A stretch of DNA of 36,867 nucleotides from a virus. Taxonomy: Duplodnaviria; Caudoviricetes. Positions 13,689 through 35,695 of this stretch are shown here, one piece after another; position 1 is the first letter of the stretch; each line of letters opens with the position of its first letter. The position numbers and the translations under genes were made by a program. The notes under the pieces are model-generated. The model did not search any database. It saw nothing but the letters and a program-made list of their open reading frames with translations, and was not told the origin of the DNA. The stretch is from positions 1 to 36,867 of IMG/VR virus record IMGVR_UViG_3300037195_001174, one strand, 5' to 3'.

Positions 13689-14019
13689 GGCGCAGATCCA
13701 GGCAGCCCGGGCCAGCCGCCCCGCCCCGCGCGAGGTGCAGTGTCCCGAATACTTGGGCCCGGCCGGGGTGGTCGCCCACATGGCCGCCCTACGCACGCGG
13801 CTCGCTTTGGCCTATGCTCGGATCCAGGTGCTGGAATCCGAACTAAGGGCGAGCCATGGGCGAGAAGAAAACGCGAGAAATCAAGGGGCCGACGGTGACG
13901 TATCGGCCCGTGGTGATGCTGAGCAAGCCGGTGGCGCTCAAAAGCAAGCCGATGGCGTTGCTCGGGCAGCGGCGGAAGAAGAAGCGCAAGAAAGCGAACT
14001 GACCAAGGAGCCAAGATGA
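13678..14019 (+). CDS. Hypothetical coiled-coil protein
   Basis: Overlaps the VRR-NUC stop; LRTRLALAYARIQVLESEL. The C-half overlaps another plausible ORF. Confidence 0.5.
   Translation: MRTEAQIQAARASRPAPREVQCPEYLGPAGVVAHMAALRTRLALAYARIQVLESELRASHGREENARNQGADGDVSARGDAEQAGGAQKQADGVARAAAEEEAQESELTKEPR
13856..14002 (+). CDS. Small Lys-rich protein (48 aa)
   Basis: Read by hand: MGEKKTREIKGPTVTYRPVVMLSKPVALKSKPMALLGQRRKKKRKKAN. AAGGG upstream, GC-rich third positions, stop just before the GroES RBS. Confidence 0.5.
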   Translation: MGEKKTREIKGPTVTYRPVVMLSKPVALKSKPMALLGQRRKKKRKKAN

Positions 14020-14399
14020 CGAAAAAGAAGCGCCCGGCGAGCGAAATACCGGGGATCACGCAGCTCAACGGGCTGCAGTACTTCGTGACCGAGATGGCGC
14101 GACCGACCACGGTCACGAGCAAGGGCGGGATTGTCCTCGCTCAGACCGAGAAGTCCGCGGAGGAGTGGGCGAGGTACGGGCGCATCGTGGTGGACGGCGA
14201 CGGCGCCGTGCTCGCGGACGGGAAGCATCACGAGTGCAAGTACGCGGTGGGCGACCATGTGTTGCTGGATAGATACACGGCGCAGACTGTGGTTCGTGGG
14301 AAGCATGTTCGGCTGGTCCCGGAGCCGCACATCTTCGCGAAGGTCGACCCGGACGCGATGGAAGCGGACAACGCGGACGACTGGAGGCCGGGCTCGTGA
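14016..14399 (+). CDS. groES: GroES/Cpn10-like co-chaperonin
   Basis: TSKGGIVL mobile loop, GRIVVDGDG...DGK, VGDHVLLDRY, RLVPEPHIFAKV; AAGGAG RBS. Confidence 0.85.
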   Translation: MTKKKRPASEIPGITQLNGLQYFVTEMARPTTVTSKGGIVLAQTEKSAEEWARYGRIVVDGDGAVLADGKHHECKYAVGDHVLLDRYTAQTVVRGKHVRLVPEPHIFAKVDPDAMEADNADDWRPGS

Positions 14400-15253: not shown

Positions 15254-15694
15254 ATGAAACTCACCCTCACGGACAGCATTCAGGAGACCATGGTGCGATT
15301 GGCGGGCAAGGGAATGCCCATTAATCGTATGTGCTGGTACTGCGGGGTGGGCGAGCGGGCGTACTACAACTGGCTTCGCAAGGGCGACATGGGCCAGGAG
15401 CCCTACGCCGCATTCGCCGCAGCCATCCGCAAGGCGCAGGGGGAGCGGGCGGACAGGCTCACCGGGCTGGTTGAGACCCACGCAAAGGACGACCCGGCGA
15501 CCGCTCGGTGGCTGTTGTCGCGGATGTCCCCGGCGCAGTTCGGGGACCAGGGCGCGGAAGAGGACCACACAGACGCGGCCTACGCGGGCAACACCGAGGC
15601 GGAGGTGGTCGAGATGTTCGCCAATGACCCGAAGATTCAGGAGCGCGTGCTCGAGGTGCTGCGCGCCAAGCGGTTGGAGAGCGGCGATGAGTGA
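15254..15694 (+). CDS. Terminase small subunit-like protein
   Basis: KLT...G......C...GVGERAYYNWLRKG HTH, FAAAIRKAQ, ARWLLSRMSPAQFG; opens the late region. Confidence 0.75.
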   Translation: MKLTLTDSIQETMVRLAGKGMPINRMCWYCGVGERAYYNWLRKGDMGQEPYAAFAAAIRKAQGERADRLTGLVETHAKDDPATARWLLSRMSPAQFGDQGAEEDHTDAAYAGNTEAEVVEMFANDPKIQERVLEVLRAKRLESGDE

Positions 15695-16016
15695 GTTCCG
15701 CGAGCCGCTGTCCGTGCGCACGCCCGGCGGGACGGTCGAGGTCGACACCGCGACACCCGCGGAGCTGCATATGGCATGCATGACGCTCGGGGTGCCCCCG
15801 TCCCATTCGGCCGAGTCGATGCGGCAGGGCCTGCGCCGCAAGCTCGAGCAGGTGAAGCTCGCACGCGCCCGCGAACGGCTGGTGGAGCTCGCACGCGCCC
15901 GCGAACGGCTGGAGAGCGCGAATGAGGTATTGCAGCTGCAGCTACTCGCAGCCCGGCACAGGGCGAGCCAGCCCCTGTGGTTCCATTTCTTTGACTGGCT
16001 CACGGGTAGACGATGA
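15687..16016 (+). CDS. Hypothetical coiled-coil protein with LARARERL duplication
   Basis: Coupled at both ends; 27-bp exact repeat at 15856-15882 and 15886-15912. Confidence 0.65.
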   Translation: MSEFREPLSVRTPGGTVEVDTATPAELHMACMTLGVPPSHSAESMRQGLRRKLEQVKLARARERLVELARARERLESANEVLQLQLLAARHRASQPLWFHFFDWLTGRR

Positions 16017-16486
16017 GTGACCTCGAGACCACCGCGCTACGCGACCTGCCCGAATCCGCCTACAATTTCGTGTGTAGCTCGTGGGTCCACTCGTGGCGCC
16101 GGCGGGTGGGACGCAACATCGACCAGGACATCTATCACCGCAGCTTCCCGAAGGTCGCGAACCACATCGCATCCCACGAGCTTGTCCGCGTGCTGCATTT
16201 CCCGGGAAATACGGACTTCTATCTCGGATGGATTGCGACCAGCGGCCCCGAGCGCCTCCACTACGTCTATATTAGGCAGAACTTCCGTCGACAGGGTAAT
16301 GCGAATACCCTAATAGCCGCCCACACGTCCAAGGATGCGACCTACAGCCTGCAGCCTGTCACCGAATGGCAGCGCCTATGGCTCGGGCGCAGGATGAAAC
16401 ATGACCCCTACCAGATTGCAGCCACATTGATCGGAGCCCACGATGAGCAAGCGACAGAAGACGACGACGACCCCCGTCCCCGATGA
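16013..16486 (+). CDS. GNAT-like acetyltransferase
   Basis: YLGWI...LHYVYIRQNFRRQGNANTLI matches GNAT motif A (acetyl-CoA binding RxxGxA). Confidence 0.7.
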   Translation: MSDLETTALRDLPESAYNFVCSSWVHSWRRRVGRNIDQDIYHRSFPKVANHIASHELVRVLHFPGNTDFYLGWIATSGPERLHYVYIRQNFRRQGNANTLIAAHTSKDATYSLQPVTEWQRLWLGRRMKHDPYQIAATLIGAHDEQATEDDDDPRPR

Positions 16487-16919
16487 CCTCGACAGCCTCG
16501 ACCCGTCCGCGACGGTGGGCGACCTGGCAGCCCAGCGCGAGCAGCTCGCGGTCGAGCGCGCCAAGCTGCGTGCGGAGGAAGCGGAGAGCCTGCGGGCCGC
16601 ACAGGAGAGCCTCGCCGCGCTGCAGAAGGTACAGGCGGAGATGGAGAGCCGCGGGAAGGTGCTCGACCGCTTCCGGGCCGAGGACGGTCCAGAAGTGAAA
16701 GAGGTGCATTTCAAGGATGCGTTCTCGCTGCCGGGCTCGGGTGTCCGCGACACGAAGCGCCTGGTCCTGGCCAACGTGTCGGCATCGAAGCGCCCGCGGG
16801 TGGTCGATATGCCCTCGGAGCGGAAGGTGGTCCTGCTCGCCCCCGCGCCCGGTGCGGACGTACATGTGGTCCTATACGAGGGGGTGACTCGCCTTGTGTA
16901 CGGCCCGATGGGTGGGTAA
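16443..16919 (+). CDS. Hypothetical protein (coiled coil plus small beta domain)
   Basis: GGAG RBS; heptad-like N-half; beta-rich C-half. Confidence 0.7.
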   Translation: MSKRQKTTTTPVPDDLDSLDPSATVGDLAAQREQLAVERAKLRAEEAESLRAAQESLAALQKVQAEMESRGKVLDRFRAEDGPEVKEVHFKDAFSLPGSGVRDTKRLVLANVSASKRPRVVDMPSERKVVLLAPAPGADVHVVLYEGVTRLVYGPMGG

Positions 16920-16930
16920 GCTAACCCCTG

Positions 16931-17033
16931 CCGCAGTGTCCCGGGGCTTGGAGACCCGGGGGCCAGCCGTCCGGGAAACCGGCGGTGGTCGGCTCCTACG
17001 GGGGCAGGGGTTCGATTCCTCCACGCGGATCCA
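16931..17033 (+). ncRNA. tRNA-like structured RNA lacking an anticodon (five-way junction, 3' CCA)
   Basis: Five helices tile the intergenic gap, with D-like GG loop, GAAA and cUACGg tetraloops, GGGG-TTCGATT-CCTC T-arm and terminal ATCCA. Confidence 0.7.
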
Positions 17034-17053
17034 ATCATCCACGGAGAGCACCG

Positions 17054-17341
17054 ATGGCATTTAGCGCAGCAGACCTCGAAATTGCACAGGGCTACCTCGC
17101 CCAGATGATCCGCACGCGTGAGGATGAGGAGCGCCTAGCCGCGCTCGTCGCCAGCCTGCGCGGGACGACTGCAGGCGCAGCCACGCTCGACCGTGCTCCC
17201 ACGTGTGACGCAGGTCACAGTAAGCCCAAGAAAGCCGCGAAGAAGAAGGCTCGCAAGCGCAAGCCGCCCGCGGTGATCAACATGGGACCGCAGGCGGCGG
17301 ACACGCTGCCGCCCGATGCGCCCGAGGGGGCTCCGGTATGA
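17054..17341 (+). CDS. Hypothetical protein with basic KPKKAAKKKARKRK patch
   Basis: GGAGAG RBS, ATG 17054. Confidence 0.7.
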   Translation: MAFSAADLEIAQGYLAQMIRTREDEERLAALVASLRGTTAGAATLDRAPTCDAGHSKPKKAAKKKARKRKPPAVINMGPQAADTLPPDAPEGAPV

Positions 17342-17577
17342 GGTCCGCGGTAGTCGCATGCGTGCTGATCGCGGGCTGTTCGAGCCTGCCCCCGGTCGCC
17401 AAGTCCGCGATGGACCTGCTGCTGCCCGTGGCTGCAGACGCGCTCACGGACGCTGTGCGGGACGCCTACAGCGCGGAGCCAGACGAGTCGACGGCCGTCT
17501 GCTTCCCACTGCCGGCCGAGGCCGTGGGCGATGATGGCTACGTCTACGTCGTGTGCCGTGCGAAGGCTGTGGAGTGA
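17338..17577 (+). CDS. Small lipoprotein
   Basis: MRSAVVACVLIAG-C lipobox; two further Cys. Confidence 0.7.
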   Translation: MRSAVVACVLIAGCSSLPPVAKSAMDLLLPVAADALTDAVRDAYSAEPDESTAVCFPLPAEAVGDDGYVYVVCRAKAVE

Positions 17578-17744
17578 TCACACGCACACGCGGACAGCGG
17601 TCGGTCAGATGGCGGCGAGCGGTCAGGCGCAGGACCCCGTGGATCAACGCGGAGTACATCCCGCCGATGACGGTCGCGGCTCCCGGCATGTGGGGCAAGA
17701 CCCCGATCGAGCGCAGCACCCGCGAGGAAGCAGCGGCGGGCTGA
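17574..17744 (+). CDS. Small Arg-rich protein
   Basis: GTGA coupling; RSVRWRRAVRRR. Confidence 0.45.
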   Translation: MITRTRGQRSVRWRRAVRRRTPWINAEYIPPMTVAAPGMWGKTPIERSTREEAAAG

Positions 17745-17751
17745 TCGACGA

Positions 17752-18126
17752 GTGACCGTATCCCGCCGCAACTTCATCCGCTCCGCCGGCGCGCTCGTGG
17801 GGCTCGTCGCGGCTGCCCCGGTGGCGCGCGTGTTCGACATGGGCGCCAATGTGCGCAGCGCGAAGCGGCCGCAAGCTGTGTTCAATATGGCCGAGCTGTC
17901 CGCAGCCGTCCCGACCCCCACAGGCATCCCGGGGGGCGACCCGGCTGAATACGGCTTTGAGTGGACCAGAGACGACCAGGTGGACGCCGCAATATATGCG
18001 TGGAAGGCGCGGGAGAACCGGCTGGTCACCACGAACGTGGATCGCGACACCCGGACCATCACGATCGGCGCTATGCCCGCATCGTGGGAGCCGCAGTCCG
18101 AGACGCTCAAACTGCTAGACGCCTAG
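17752..18126 (+). CDS. Protein with twin-arginine (Tat)-like signal peptide
   Basis: MTVSRRNFIRSAGALVGLVAAAPVA fits S-R-R-x-F-L plus a hydrophobic h-region. Confidence 0.7.
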   Translation: MTVSRRNFIRSAGALVGLVAAAPVARVFDMGANVRSAKRPQAVFNMAELSAAVPTPTGIPGGDPAEYGFEWTRDDQVDAAIYAWKARENRLVTTNVDRDTRTITIGAMPASWEPQSETLKLLDA

Positions 18127-18127
18127 C

Positions 18128-19708
18128 ATGCAAGGGCCCGCGCAATACATCGCGAACGCCCGAGCACGCAAAGAGCAGGACAGGCGCGACCCGTACGAGC
18201 TCATGTTCCCAAAGCAGCGTGAAGCGTTCGCTGCCGAGGACCAGGAGTTCATAGCGGTCCACTGTGGTAGGCGCTCGGGTAAGACGCGCGGGTTCCTCCT
18301 ACGCGCGCTCAAGGTGATGCAGAAATACCCGGGCTGCCGGGTGCCGTACATCGCGTTAACTCGCAAGTCCGCTGAGGGCATCCTGTGGCGGCAGATTGCA
18401 GAAGTGAACGACGACCTCGGGCTGGGGCTCATCCCGCGCAAGGGCGCCCTCGTGTGGGAGGCTCCGAACGGGGCCGAGATATTCCTGGTCGGCGCCAACA
18501 AAACCGACGAGATCGAGAAGCTCCGCGGGCAGGCGTACCCGCTGATCGGCATCGATGAGGCCGCGTCGTTCCGCGCGACCCTGCTCGAGCTGCTGATCGA
18601 TGACGTGCTGGACATGGCCCTGATGGACTACAAGGGCTCCATCATCCTGGTAGGCACGCCCGGGGCCGCGTGCGTGGGCTACTTCCACGACGTGTGCACG
18701 GGCGCCAAGCCGGGCTGGTCGGTCCACCATTGGGACGCTACGGACAATCCGCACATGCCTCACGCGGCCGAGTGGATGGAGGCCAGGCGCATCAAACGCG
18801 GATGGGACACGGACAACCCCACCTATCTGCGGGAATACAGGGGCATCTGGGCTCGCGACACGGACGCGCTCGTCTACAAGTGGGACCAGTCGCGCAACGG
18901 CGAGCACGCGATGCCCGACGACTACGACCCCGCGAGCAAGGCGTGGAGCCACGTGATCGGCATCGACTATGGCTATGTCGACAGCTGCGCGTGGGTCGTC
19001 CTGGCCTTCCGCAGTTGGAAGGGGTCGGGGGGCGACCGGACCGTGTACGTGGTCGAGTCGTTCAAGCGCTCGACCTTGAGCCTCGAGGAGCACGCCGAGT
19101 TCCTGTCCGATATGGCCATCGAGGGTGTCGCGGTGGAAGCGGACCGCCCGGTGGGCGCCGGGTTGCTGCAGGACGAAGCCGGCTGGCTCACGCAGCGACT
19201 GTACCGCAAGTACGCACCTCAGCGCATAGTAGGCGACAGTGGGGGCCTCGGTAAGCCGTATGTCGAATTCGCCCGGCGGCGGCTCAAGATCCCGATCGTG
19301 GCCGCGGACAAGGCTGCGAAGTTGGCCCAAATCGAGTTTGTCAACGCCGCATTGCGCACTTCGGCGCTCCGTGTGATACTCACCAGCAACCGAGACCTGA
19401 TCGACGAAGCTGCGATCCTGCAGTGGAGCATGGAAAAGGTCGCGGTGACTGCGGGTGGTCAAGTCCGGCATGAGCTACGCCGGGCGATCGATGAGCGATT
19501 CGAGGACCATTTGTGTGACGCGCTGCAGTATGCCTATGGGGCTGCTACAGCGTATCGAAATGAGGCCCCAGCCAAAAAGCCTCCGCGTGATCTGAGCCGC
19601 GATGCGGTCGACGACACCCGAGACGCGCCACGTGAGCGGCGCAACGAGGCTGGATGGCTGGAGACACGGAGAGCGGGCAAGCAAGCCAACGACTGGTGGG
19701 ACCGCTAG
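18128..19708 (+). CDS. terL: Terminase large subunit
   Basis: FPKQ, Walker A GRRSGKT, Walker B IGIDEAA, GTP coupling motif, nuclease GIDYG and EDHLCDALQY. Confidence 0.93.
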   Translation: MQGPAQYIANARARKEQDRRDPYELMFPKQREAFAAEDQEFIAVHCGRRSGKTRGFLLRALKVMQKYPGCRVPYIALTRKSAEGILWRQIAEVNDDLGLGLIPRKGALVWEAPNGAEIFLVGANKTDEIEKLRGQAYPLIGIDEAASFRATLLELLIDDVLDMALMDYKGSIILVGTPGAACVGYFHDVCTGAKPGWSVHHWDATDNPHMPHAAEWMEARRIKRGWDTDNPTYLREYRGIWARDTDALVYKWDQSRNGEHAMPDDYDPASKAWSHVIGIDYGYVDSCAWVVLAFRSWKGSGGDRTVYVVESFKRSTLSLEEHAEFLSDMAIEGVAVEADRPVGAGLLQDEAGWLTQRLYRKYAPQRIVGDSGGLGKPYVEFARRRLKIPIVAADKAAKLAQIEFVNAALRTSALRVILTSNRDLIDEAAILQWSMEKVAVTAGGQVRHELRRAIDERFEDHLCDALQYAYGAATAYRNEAPAKKPPRDLSRDAVDDTRDAPRERRNEAGWLETRRAGKQANDWWDR

Positions 19709-34242: not shown

Positions 34243-35010
34243 GTGCCACCGATTGCAGGCAGCCTAGCGGGTAGCCTCGCCGGTCGCGGGGGCGGGAGTC
34301 TTGCGGGTGGGGCGAACACCATCGCAGCGCTCGCAGGCGCATCGTTGCGGGCGCATTACCGCGGGGATGCATTCGAGGAGGGCGCGGGAGGTGCGCCGGA
34401 CGCGGAAACGGCGAACGATCTGCACAGCAGCGGACTATATGACGCAACGAACCTCACGCAGTCGCAGCAGCCACACAGCGGGGACGTGCTTGGCTTTCCG
34501 GCGCTTGAGTTTTCAAAAGCTGCCGCACGCGGGCTTACTGCATCGGGCGTAGCGATGAACGCCATCAACGATGACATGACCACGATGTGCGTGTTCAAGC
34601 GCAACTCGGCCATCGCCGGTACGGAGGTGGCTTTTCAAGCGGGCGTGTCCGGGTTCAACGACGGGATCAACATTTTTTTTGGGGTGTCCCAGGGTCTGCG
34701 GGTCCGATTCGGAACAGCTGCATCGCTTGAGACCATCGATACAGCATTTTCGGACACAGCCGCTTACCACGTCGTACGCGGCACCACCAATGCAGCGGGC
34801 GTTACATCGTCTCTCGACGGGGCGGCCACTCTGGACGCGGGCACGTTCAACGGCATCGCAGCGGCGTGCACGGACATCGATCTTGGTAGATCGGTTGCGG
34901 GGTCATCGCCCGGCGACGTCACGATCGCGGAGGCTGTTGTGATGGTCAATCCGACTGCCGCGCAGGTGTCCGGTGTAGAAGATTTTCTCATTGCGAAGTA
35001 CGGGGTATAA
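34243..35010 (+). CDS. LamG/ConA-like domain protein (tail/receptor-binding candidate)
   Basis: LRAHYRGD...DLHSSGLYDAT...QP...GFPALEF...GDVTIAEAVV...VEDFLIAKYGV architecture. Confidence 0.6.
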   Translation: MPPIAGSLAGSLAGRGGGSLAGGANTIAALAGASLRAHYRGDAFEEGAGGAPDAETANDLHSSGLYDATNLTQSQQPHSGDVLGFPALEFSKAAARGLTASGVAMNAINDDMTTMCVFKRNSAIAGTEVAFQAGVSGFNDGINIFFGVSQGLRVRFGTAASLETIDTAFSDTAAYHVVRGTTNAAGVTSSLDGAATLDAGTFNGIAAACTDIDLGRSVAGSSPGDVTIAEAVVMVNPTAAQVSGVEDFLIAKYGV

Positions 35011-35011
35011 A

Positions 35012-35695
35012 ATGGTCCGGGCGTGGTTAGTGTCGTTGATCCTGGCCGCCTGTCCGCAAGCGCAGGCGGAACCGTGCACACCACGGGATGTGCGTGTGAT
35101 GTTTCTCGGCGGCTCCATCACCGCGGGTTGCCACGATGGCGGCTCCGATAGCGCGTATCGATTGATGCTGCAGGAGACTATCCCGGAGTTCACGCCCGTA
35201 GGGTCGCTGACCACCAATTGCAGCGGGTCGTCCGCTGCGCACGAGGGTCACGGCGGGTGGACGATTGGACAAGTGGCCGATGTAGCAGCCGGGCTGATGG
35301 CAGATTACGAGCCCGATGTGGTGGTGTTGCTAATTGGGACCAACAACTACCGCGACGACGACGCCGACTTCCGCGCCGAGTATCAGGCGCTCGCGGACGC
35401 GCTCCAGGGCGACGTGTACGCGGTGACCCCGCCGCCCATCGGCTACGGCCGCACCCCAGAGACGAGCTACTGGACCGACGAGTGGGTGGACGGGCGTAAC
35501 GTGCTGCTGTCGTCGATGGGGGACGCGCTCCACGATGTGGTGGGTGTCTCGGTTGTGGACGTCCGCGGGCAGTTCGCTCGGGAGCACATGGTCCCGGATG
35601 CCGTCCACTTGAACGCCGCGGGGCATCGAATCATTGCGGATGCGCTGCTAGAACAGATCGACTTTTGTGAGGCCGACGATGACGACACCCCGTGA
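35012..35695 (+). CDS. SGNH/GDSL hydrolase with signal peptide
   Basis: FLGGSITAG, HEGHGGW, LLIGTNN, DAVHLNAAGH blocks. Confidence 0.9.
   Translation: MVRAWLVSLILAACPQAQAEPCTPRDVRVMFLGGSITAGCHDGGSDSAYRLMLQETIPEFTPVGSLTTNCSGSSAAHEGHGGWTIGQVADVAAGLMADYEPDVVVLLIGTNNYRDDDADFRAEYQALADALQGDVYAVTPPPIGYGRTPETSYWTDEWVDGRNVLLSSMGDALHDVVGVSVVDVRGQFAREHMVPDAVHLNAAGHRIIADALLEQIDFCEADDDDTP

Follow-up and report, generated by a model that had tools for sequence, protein, structure and literature searches.

According to passages of Mukai 2017 (PMC5389517), (8/4) tRNA-Ser and allo-tRNAs are known from bacteria and phages. The set described there includes 8/4 tRNAs that carry a single bulge, as well as allo-tRNA(UAU) species that are inactive in translation and may form five-stem junctions. 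Allo-tRNAs carrying G73 or U73 were considered probable acceptors of serine, and some of them inserted Ser in E. coli. In the present study, we analyzed a whole virus record of 36,867 nucleotides (the window), whose DNA was present in marine metagenome runs, and found a tRNA-like RNA gene of 104 nt with an encoded 3′ CCA on the + strand (16930..17033). This element departs from the known 8/4 tRNA body in that a sealed hairpin replaces the codon-reading loop.

The MFE fold of 16930-17033 was the five-way junction proposed in a preliminary description of this locus, and all of the helices, loops and coordinates given there were present in the sequence. One nucleotide had to be corrected: the 5′ end had been placed at 16931 and is probably G16930, since this gives 8-nt acceptor strands with G1 opposite A72. 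The acceptor 5′ strand (16930..16938, +) paired with 17022-17028, leaving a 1:72 mismatch between G16930 and A17029 and a bulged A16935, and the acceptor 3′ strand (17022..17033, +) ended in the discriminator U17030 and CCA at 17031-33. Between the two strands were a D-like arm (16940..16960, +) of 6 bp with GG (16950-51) in its 9-nt loop and a possible UGG triloop closure, an arm at the anticodon position (16961..16990, +), a variable arm (16992..17005, +) of 5 bp with a cUACGg loop, and a T arm (17006..17021, +) of 4 bp with A17006 unpaired, which was the commonest type among phage 8/4 tRNAs. The stem of the arm at the anticodon position (16961-65/16986-90) had the canonical length of 5 bp, and a 20-nt, 7-bp hairpin with a GAAA cap (16975-78) took the place of the 7-nt anticodon loop. 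The acceptor, D-like and variable-like helices had pair probabilities of 0.93-1.0 and the long arm of 0.97-1.0, apart from a single pair at 0.65; those of the T stem were 0.47-0.49. In addition, the 8/4 reading of the acceptor/T branch was better than the 7/5 reading by 2.4 kcal/mol. The folding energy was within chance (z -1.31; 17 of 200 shuffles folded equally well), and a junction of at least five ways was the MFE fold of 24 of the 1414 104-nt windows of this phage. A T-loop consensus followed by CCA exactly 11 nt on was rare by chance, with 0.003 expected per window in 1000 dinucleotide shuffles. None of the pairs in the D-like, long and variable arms was mismatched, and two of these arms carried GNRA/UNCG loops. 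These results indicated that the predicted five-helix structure, with its T loop and CCA, is real and well-formed.

The comparison with phage tRNAs placed the element beside the 8/4 family. Scanning for the T arm recovered many phage tRNAs with an 8/4 acceptor/T branch, and the 16-nt T-arm word of the element occurred exactly in 12 of 38 phage 8/4 tRNA-Ser genes. With a model of these 38 genes, the element was the top match in the window (21.7 bits, E 9e-4; next match 10.1 bits), a score short of member level and below the 26-46 bits of non-member 8/4 tRNAs. It was also the top window match of a second 8/4 model, that of an anticodon-first class (20.0 bits, E 2e-3), and the next-best window matches for the two models lay at 10-12 bits. 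A model of the element itself was run on 200 of the 219 pattern-derived loci, which included hundreds of canonical tRNAs and from which duplicates and identical copies were excluded. The sole matches at E <= 0.001 (26-28 bits) were L074, L251 and L138, all of them 8/4 tRNA-Ser with D stems of 6-8 bp. In the alignment, D arm fell on D arm and variable arm on variable arm (16992-17005 on the variable arm of L074), so that the arms follow the order acceptor, D, anticodon position, variable and T. Judged against passages of PMC5389517, the element shares with (8/4) tRNA-Ser and allo-tRNAs a 12-bp branch split 8/4 (8-nt acceptor strands with 7 pairs, the 1:72 mismatch and one bulge, and a 4-bp T stem), a long D stem (6 bp), a variable arm (5 bp), the T-arm word, and a discriminator of the G73/U73 kind, namely U73, which also occurred in 10 of the 38 phage 8/4 tRNA-Ser genes. 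In contrast, the (8/4) tRNA-Ser and allo-tRNAs in those passages all have an anticodon loop, the form expected for the class being 7 nt with a U-turn on a 5-6 bp stem, whereas the element has the sealed GAAA hairpin; it is 104 nt long, compared with 85-93 nt in the 38 phage genes; and its bulge lies in the acceptor 5′ strand, whereas that of the bulged 8/4 tRNAs lies at 51a. A word search of the supplement table of that study, as far as its text is accessible, returned none of the diagnostic words of the element. By these sequence comparisons, the element resembles 8/4 tRNA-Ser and is not a member of that class.

Refolding the long arm to expose a 7-nt loop cost 11.2 kcal/mol, so an anticodon loop cannot form in place, which bore out the earlier proposal of a non-decoding tRNA mimic. 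The element is very probably tRNA-derived and non-decoding. A decoding RNA would have to use either the 5′ hairpin loop (C-U-UGG-A-G) or the refolded long arm (C-C-GGG-A-A) as its anticodon loop and would then be a Pro-codon reader or mistranslator. Both loops are similar to phage tRNA loops (L183 and L088), and the anticodon-first 8/4 class shows that such an arrangement exists. However, the GGG refold carries the cost given above and leaves a 10-bp arm in place, the 5′ hairpin has just 6 bp under its loop and no enclosing helix, and the anticodon-first model fits the acceptor/T branch alone, with 20 bits compared with 28-39 bits for non-member 8/4 tRNAs. We give almost no credence to decoding. 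Assignment to the pseudoknotted anticodon-first class itself was rejected, as its model covers only the acceptor, the next four bases and the T arm.

Several other tRNA-like genes were met in the scans. The anticodon-first class consists of 8/4 phage tRNAs with a terminal CCA whose anticodon arm stands in first place within an enclosing 5-bp helix; this helix crosses a second, 3-bp helix, and the resulting pseudoknot replaces the D arm, while the GG has shifted to a position just before the T arm. Its members were L078:1442-1528(+), L097:1441-1528(+), L098:1501-1587(-), L100:1328-1416(-) and L119:1501-1589(-), together with L220, L227, L229, L238, L239, L255 and L257, and the anticodon was UCU in 10 of the 12, the others being GUA and probably CCA. 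Among the 12 distinct sequences, 19 of 25 pairs showed two-sided changes, which none of 500 shuffles equaled, and slid controls were far lower. ARAGORN found 0 genes among the members tested, Rfam gave at most weak tRNA-Sec matches for the eight tested, and a word search of the Mukai supplement, in its accessible part, did not return the class (PMC5389517). Five further 8/4 tRNAs (L118:1445-1528(+), L232, L245, L260 and L120:2668-2751(-)), mostly with a UAU-like anticodon loop, had one additional short stem that encloses the D arm and the anticodon arm, and they probably correspond to the allo-tRNA(UAU) with five stems in Mukai 2017. In addition, L183, L192, L216 and L218 were phage tRNA-Pro(UGG) that combine A37 with a long variable arm of class II type, and L057:1052-1560 and L059 were a jumbo-phage tRNA whose interrupting group I intron (72 bits) carries a long insertion.

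The acceptor end was compared with the serine-specific genes. The 38 phage 8/4 tRNA-Ser genes had G1-C72 in 35, G2-C71 in 38 and A3-U70 in 36, whereas the element had G1.A72, C2-G71 and C3-G70 plus the bulged A; these differences suggested that charging would be weak or absent. According to the identity table in part of PMC9976931, the element mixes a serine-type variable arm with a glycine-like U73 and C2-G71, and fits no identity set completely. One could still suppose a serine carrier acting off the ribosome, charged by SerRS through the variable arm and donating or sequestering serine, e.g., for the nearby GNAT-fold protein. The same source, in the part concerned, places serine identity mainly in the variable arm and not in the anticodon (PMC9976931), and both the serine acceptance ascribed to G73/U73 allo-tRNAs and the frequency of U73 in the phage set agree with this reading. 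Against this, all three serine-type acceptor pairs are missing, and the record holds no class II synthetase gene. The small phage GNAT-fold gene, two ORFs upstream (16013..16486, +), also persists in a syntenic relative (L004) that lacks the RNA, and it resembles common phage GNAT clusters. A serine carrier is accordingly very improbable.

Other described RNAs were considered. The preliminary description had stated that the element was not recognizable as tRNA, tRNA-Sec, tmRNA or Y RNA; this held in the ARAGORN and Rfam checks that it had called for, as ARAGORN predicted 0 genes in the window and Rfam gave 0 matches at the gathering score, with local matches at chance level based on the T arm. 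The chassis itself, however, is recognizable as the 8/4 tRNA-Ser/allo-tRNA body. A canonical 7/5 cloverleaf tRNA (RF00005) was rejected on the ARAGORN and Rfam results. The element shares with tRNA-Sec (RF01852) an 8-bp acceptor, a 6-bp D stem and a variable arm, but it has no UCA anticodon, its T stem has 4 bp, and its match of 13.9 bits (E 6.3; gathering score 47) involved only the T arm. The T stem of tRNA-Sec has 5 bp. The tRNA-like domain of tmRNA combines an acceptor/T arm and CCA with a helix that replaces the anticodon arm. The element has the acceptor/T arm and CCA too, but with a full D stem and a variable arm, and tmRNA was rejected on the basis of C3-G70 instead of G3.U70, a length of 104 nt, the lack of a tag reading frame and the ARAGORN result. 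YrlA and bacterial Y RNA are non-coding RNAs that mimic tRNA and occur also in phages, as described in part of Chen et al. 2014 (PMC4201824; RF02553). This candidate was rejected as well: the record, rated 100% complete and linear, has no Ro60/TROVE gene, RF02553 gave no match, and the element, in contrast to Y RNA, has an open acceptor end with CCA. The T4 species 1 and 2 RNAs (rnaC and rnaD), which are late and of unknown function according to a section of PMC9697503, offer a precedent for small stable phage RNAs annotated next to tRNA genes. The fold of rnaC has a T arm and long hairpins and lacks an anticodon loop, like the element; however, both T4 RNAs are AT-rich with other arms, rnaC has no encoded CCA, and the model of the element did not match the rnaC and rnaD genes at E <= 1. 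An intron reading was rejected because the arms contain only 1-nt bulges without a bulge-helix-bulge and the genes (DnaB, GroES, CHAP) indicate a bacterial host.

The genomic setting was then compared with that of the syntenic relative. The element had been described as lying between TerS (15254-15694) and TerL (18128-19708); it does fall within this interval, but the wording is loose, as three ORFs precede it and several small ORFs follow it. It sits in a 134-nt spacer of a co-directional operon, 10 nt after the stop of a 158-aa ORF (16443..16919, +) and 20 nt before the ATG of a 95-aa ORF (17054..17341, +), which has GGAG at 17043-46. In 16000-18200, neither a sigma-70 promoter-like site nor a terminator-like site on the + strand was found. 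In L004, TerS, the GNAT gene, the 158-aa, 95-aa, 79-aa and 124-aa ORFs and TerL follow in the same order with 52-85% identity, and the spacer is 27 nt long and lacks the RNA. Since the 95-aa orthologue of L004 begins at the same ATG, the RNA region is non-coding, and two coding readings (an overlapping minus-strand ORF and a GTG-extended ORF) were rejected, as neither is preserved there. In sequence terms, the element is an optional gene, absent from one syntenic relative. The earlier proposal of a packaging-associated RNA, put forward beside a decoy and a processing signal, is unlikely because L004 keeps orthologous TerS and TerL without the element. More broadly, the element might be a packaging-associated RNA, an attP remnant or a chance fold, a group of readings suggested by its position in the TerS-TerL interval and by a folding z of -1.3. 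The absence in L004 speaks against packaging, the record has no tyrosine integrase and the element has both acceptor strands, which speaks against attP, and the rarity in shuffles of tRNA motifs in register speaks against chance; together these readings are hardly credible.

A short contig of run X8, matching 16744-16923 of the window, was about 80% similar to the 158-aa gene, and the sequence past its stop reads like a 5′ acceptor strand followed by the D arm of an ordinary tRNA (30 letters, judged by eye). Taken with the empty spacer of L004, this suggested that the spacer is probably a tRNA slot with three states: empty, holding an ordinary-looking tRNA, and holding this RNA. Within the empty spacer (L004:2587-2613), a word with ACCA at its end might be what is left of the 3′ part of a deleted tRNA gene. 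Elsewhere in this 37-kb phage, the small ORF directly before TerL (17752-18126), partially conserved in L001 and L004, has a TAT-signal-like N-terminus (Pfam E 0.002, below the cut-off). The window also carries a GroES-like co-chaperonin gene (14016-14399) and a GDSL lipase-like gene (34991-35695), and 15402-15430 is a short repeat-like match to a tandem stretch at L002:2481-2568.

Homologues were sought in several collections. Contigs from three other runs span the element, and in two loci (L236 and L258) it was identical letter for letter; these copies and the bridging contigs indicated that it is not an assembly error. Between L258 and the window, 23 of 2981 sites differed, with 0 differences in the 134-nt spacer where about one was expected. 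None of the public runs listed for this DNA was an RNA run, which speaks neither for nor against expression. Collection of homologues from related phage contigs, which the preliminary description had proposed, yielded identical copies only, and no diverged homologue was found by pattern scans, blastn or the model search, of which the exact-match patterns miss RNAs with an altered T arm or loop. In viral contigs, the exact T-arm/acceptor pattern had 0 matches. The GAAA, UNCG and T-loop pattern had five, comprising two tRNA-Leu, two copies of a group I intron-split tRNA and one coding-like sequence. The pattern of 8/4 T arm and CCA had at least 121 loci in 18 of 64 parts, with the architecture of the element in 0 of the 114 distinct loci listed, and none of the 38 loci with GAAA and an 8/4 T arm had it. 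Metagenome contigs gave 41 loci, with two identical copies and 0 diverged ones, and genome contigs gave 14 loci, none of them a homologue. With blastn against 50,697 phage records, only T-arm fragments were returned and 0 hits covered 80%. Among 50 of 54 TerL-related virus records, six of the 50 being at least 90% complete, the model of the element matched once, to a canonical tRNA(CAU). Scans with neighboring proteins returned none for the GNAT protein and L004 only for the 158-aa ORF, and a word-based search of open-access literature returned no account of this RNA or of any GNRA-sealed 8/4 tRNA.

The main rival to the decoy that we prefer, set out below, is a rearranged tRNA relic: an 8/4 tRNA gene acquired in a tRNA slot that lost its activity when palindromic CCGG words underwent one or two local duplications and that now has no function. 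The absence of the element in L004, the restriction of its known copies to identical ones (L236 and L258), an acceptor off the family consensus at pairs 1-3 and carrying a bulge, a D-like and a long arm made of self-complementary words, and a leader helix that would block processing are all consistent with such a relic. However, three arms are free of mismatches, two of them with special tetraloops, and the T loop, D-loop GG and CCA are intact. A relic deserves serious weight, although we consider it somewhat less likely than the decoy.

The leader helix was analyzed as a separate feature. The leader together with the first 3 nt of the RNA (16923..16932, +) is a perfect 10-bp complement of 17003-17012. 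Pairing of these strands would remove the acceptor, variable and T helices and keep the D-like and long arms, and nearest-neighbour rules, which take no account of the tRNA elbow, made this fold the more stable one for 16920-17033 by 5.4 kcal/mol. The tRNA shape may therefore not form in the unprocessed transcript. A helix as long as that of the leader was found for 31 of 20000 10-mers drawn at random from the window and for 46 of 20000 shuffled versions of the leader, and a leader complement of at least 9 bp for 0 of 838 other tRNA genes in the collected loci, both being post hoc tests. The leader of the X8 contig, also before its tRNA-like start, is palindromic and may likewise be able to pair with a strand of the variable loop and T stem. 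The leader helix may be a processing gate, an insertion scar or the cause of the death of the gene. As a gate, it would suit a cis-acting punctuation or switch, in which host RNase P or 3′ trimming would separate the 158-aa gene from the 95-aa gene in the late message, and would do so only after a ribosome has terminated upstream. The placement of the element in the co-directional operon, close to a stop and a start, fits this reading, as does the rarity of the leader complement. The leader is presumably also within reach of a ribosome terminating at 16917-19. Nevertheless, L004 has the same gene pair without the element, the top half alone would suffice as a processing signal and leaves three extra arms superfluous, the predicted accessibility of GGAG showed no clean switch between the folds, and the leader was tested only after the helix had been noticed. 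We consider punctuation, including its gated form, decidedly unlikely.

The sequence, the predicted fold, the 8/4 chassis, the absent anticodon loop and the empty spacer in one relative are directly supported. Our best reading, held tentatively and at somewhat less than an even chance, is that the element is a host-processed, non-decoding, poorly charged tRNA decoy. In this decoy model, the element would be transcribed as part of the late operon, and the leader helix would be melted before cleavage, possibly by the ribosome terminating 10 nt upstream. Host RNase P would cut U16929/G16930, and 3′ nucleases would shorten the RNA to its encoded CCA, in the manner of ordinary phage tRNA genes; we assume that U at -1, G at +1 and the 12-bp top half suit RNase P. 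The product would retain the elbow formed by the D-loop GG and the T loop, along with the variable arm and the 12-bp top half. As the lower arm is about 7 bp overlong and sealed, codon pairing would be impossible and no anticodon loop would be offered for cutting, and charging would be weak or absent. Such a tRNA-shaped, non-decoding and poorly charged RNA may occupy the readers of tRNA shape, titrating host proteins that sense it, most plausibly tRNA-attacking defence effectors. In a translation-gated version, which we regard as improbable, the 10-bp leader/T-stem lock would be melted by the ribosome terminating at the upstream stop; the tRNA fold would form only after melting, and RNase P would free an uncuttable, anticodon-less mimic that soaks up tRNA-attacking defence enzymes late in infection.

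The fold and pair probabilities, the T loop/CCA register and the 8/4 model matches argue for the decoy, as does a slot that can hold tRNA genes, judging from the 30 letters of the X8 contig. The mismatch-free arms with GNRA/UNCG loops would be unlike slow decay and would also count for it. On the other side stand the relative without the element, the unexceptional folding energy, the more stable leader-paired precursor, and the lack of diverged homologues in the scans and hence of covariation support for selection. Parts of PMC10264068 and PMC12445682 describe defences that cut tRNA and phage tRNAs that escape them; they do not show a decoy RNA. According to the latter source in part, phage tRNAs rescue by replacing decoding (PMC12445682), which is impossible for the element, so we infer the decoy step.

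It is established that phage tRNAs can offset tRNA-cutting defences by standing in for the cut tRNA, and a tRNA-shaped RNA that is unable to decode would act otherwise, as a decoy or a cutting signal. This instance alone is a weak test case, being optional and confined to a single lineage. The element is short and synthesisable and is suited to RNase P cleavage, charging and protection tests. An RNA of this kind would show that tRNA callers overlook a layer of phage RNA genes.
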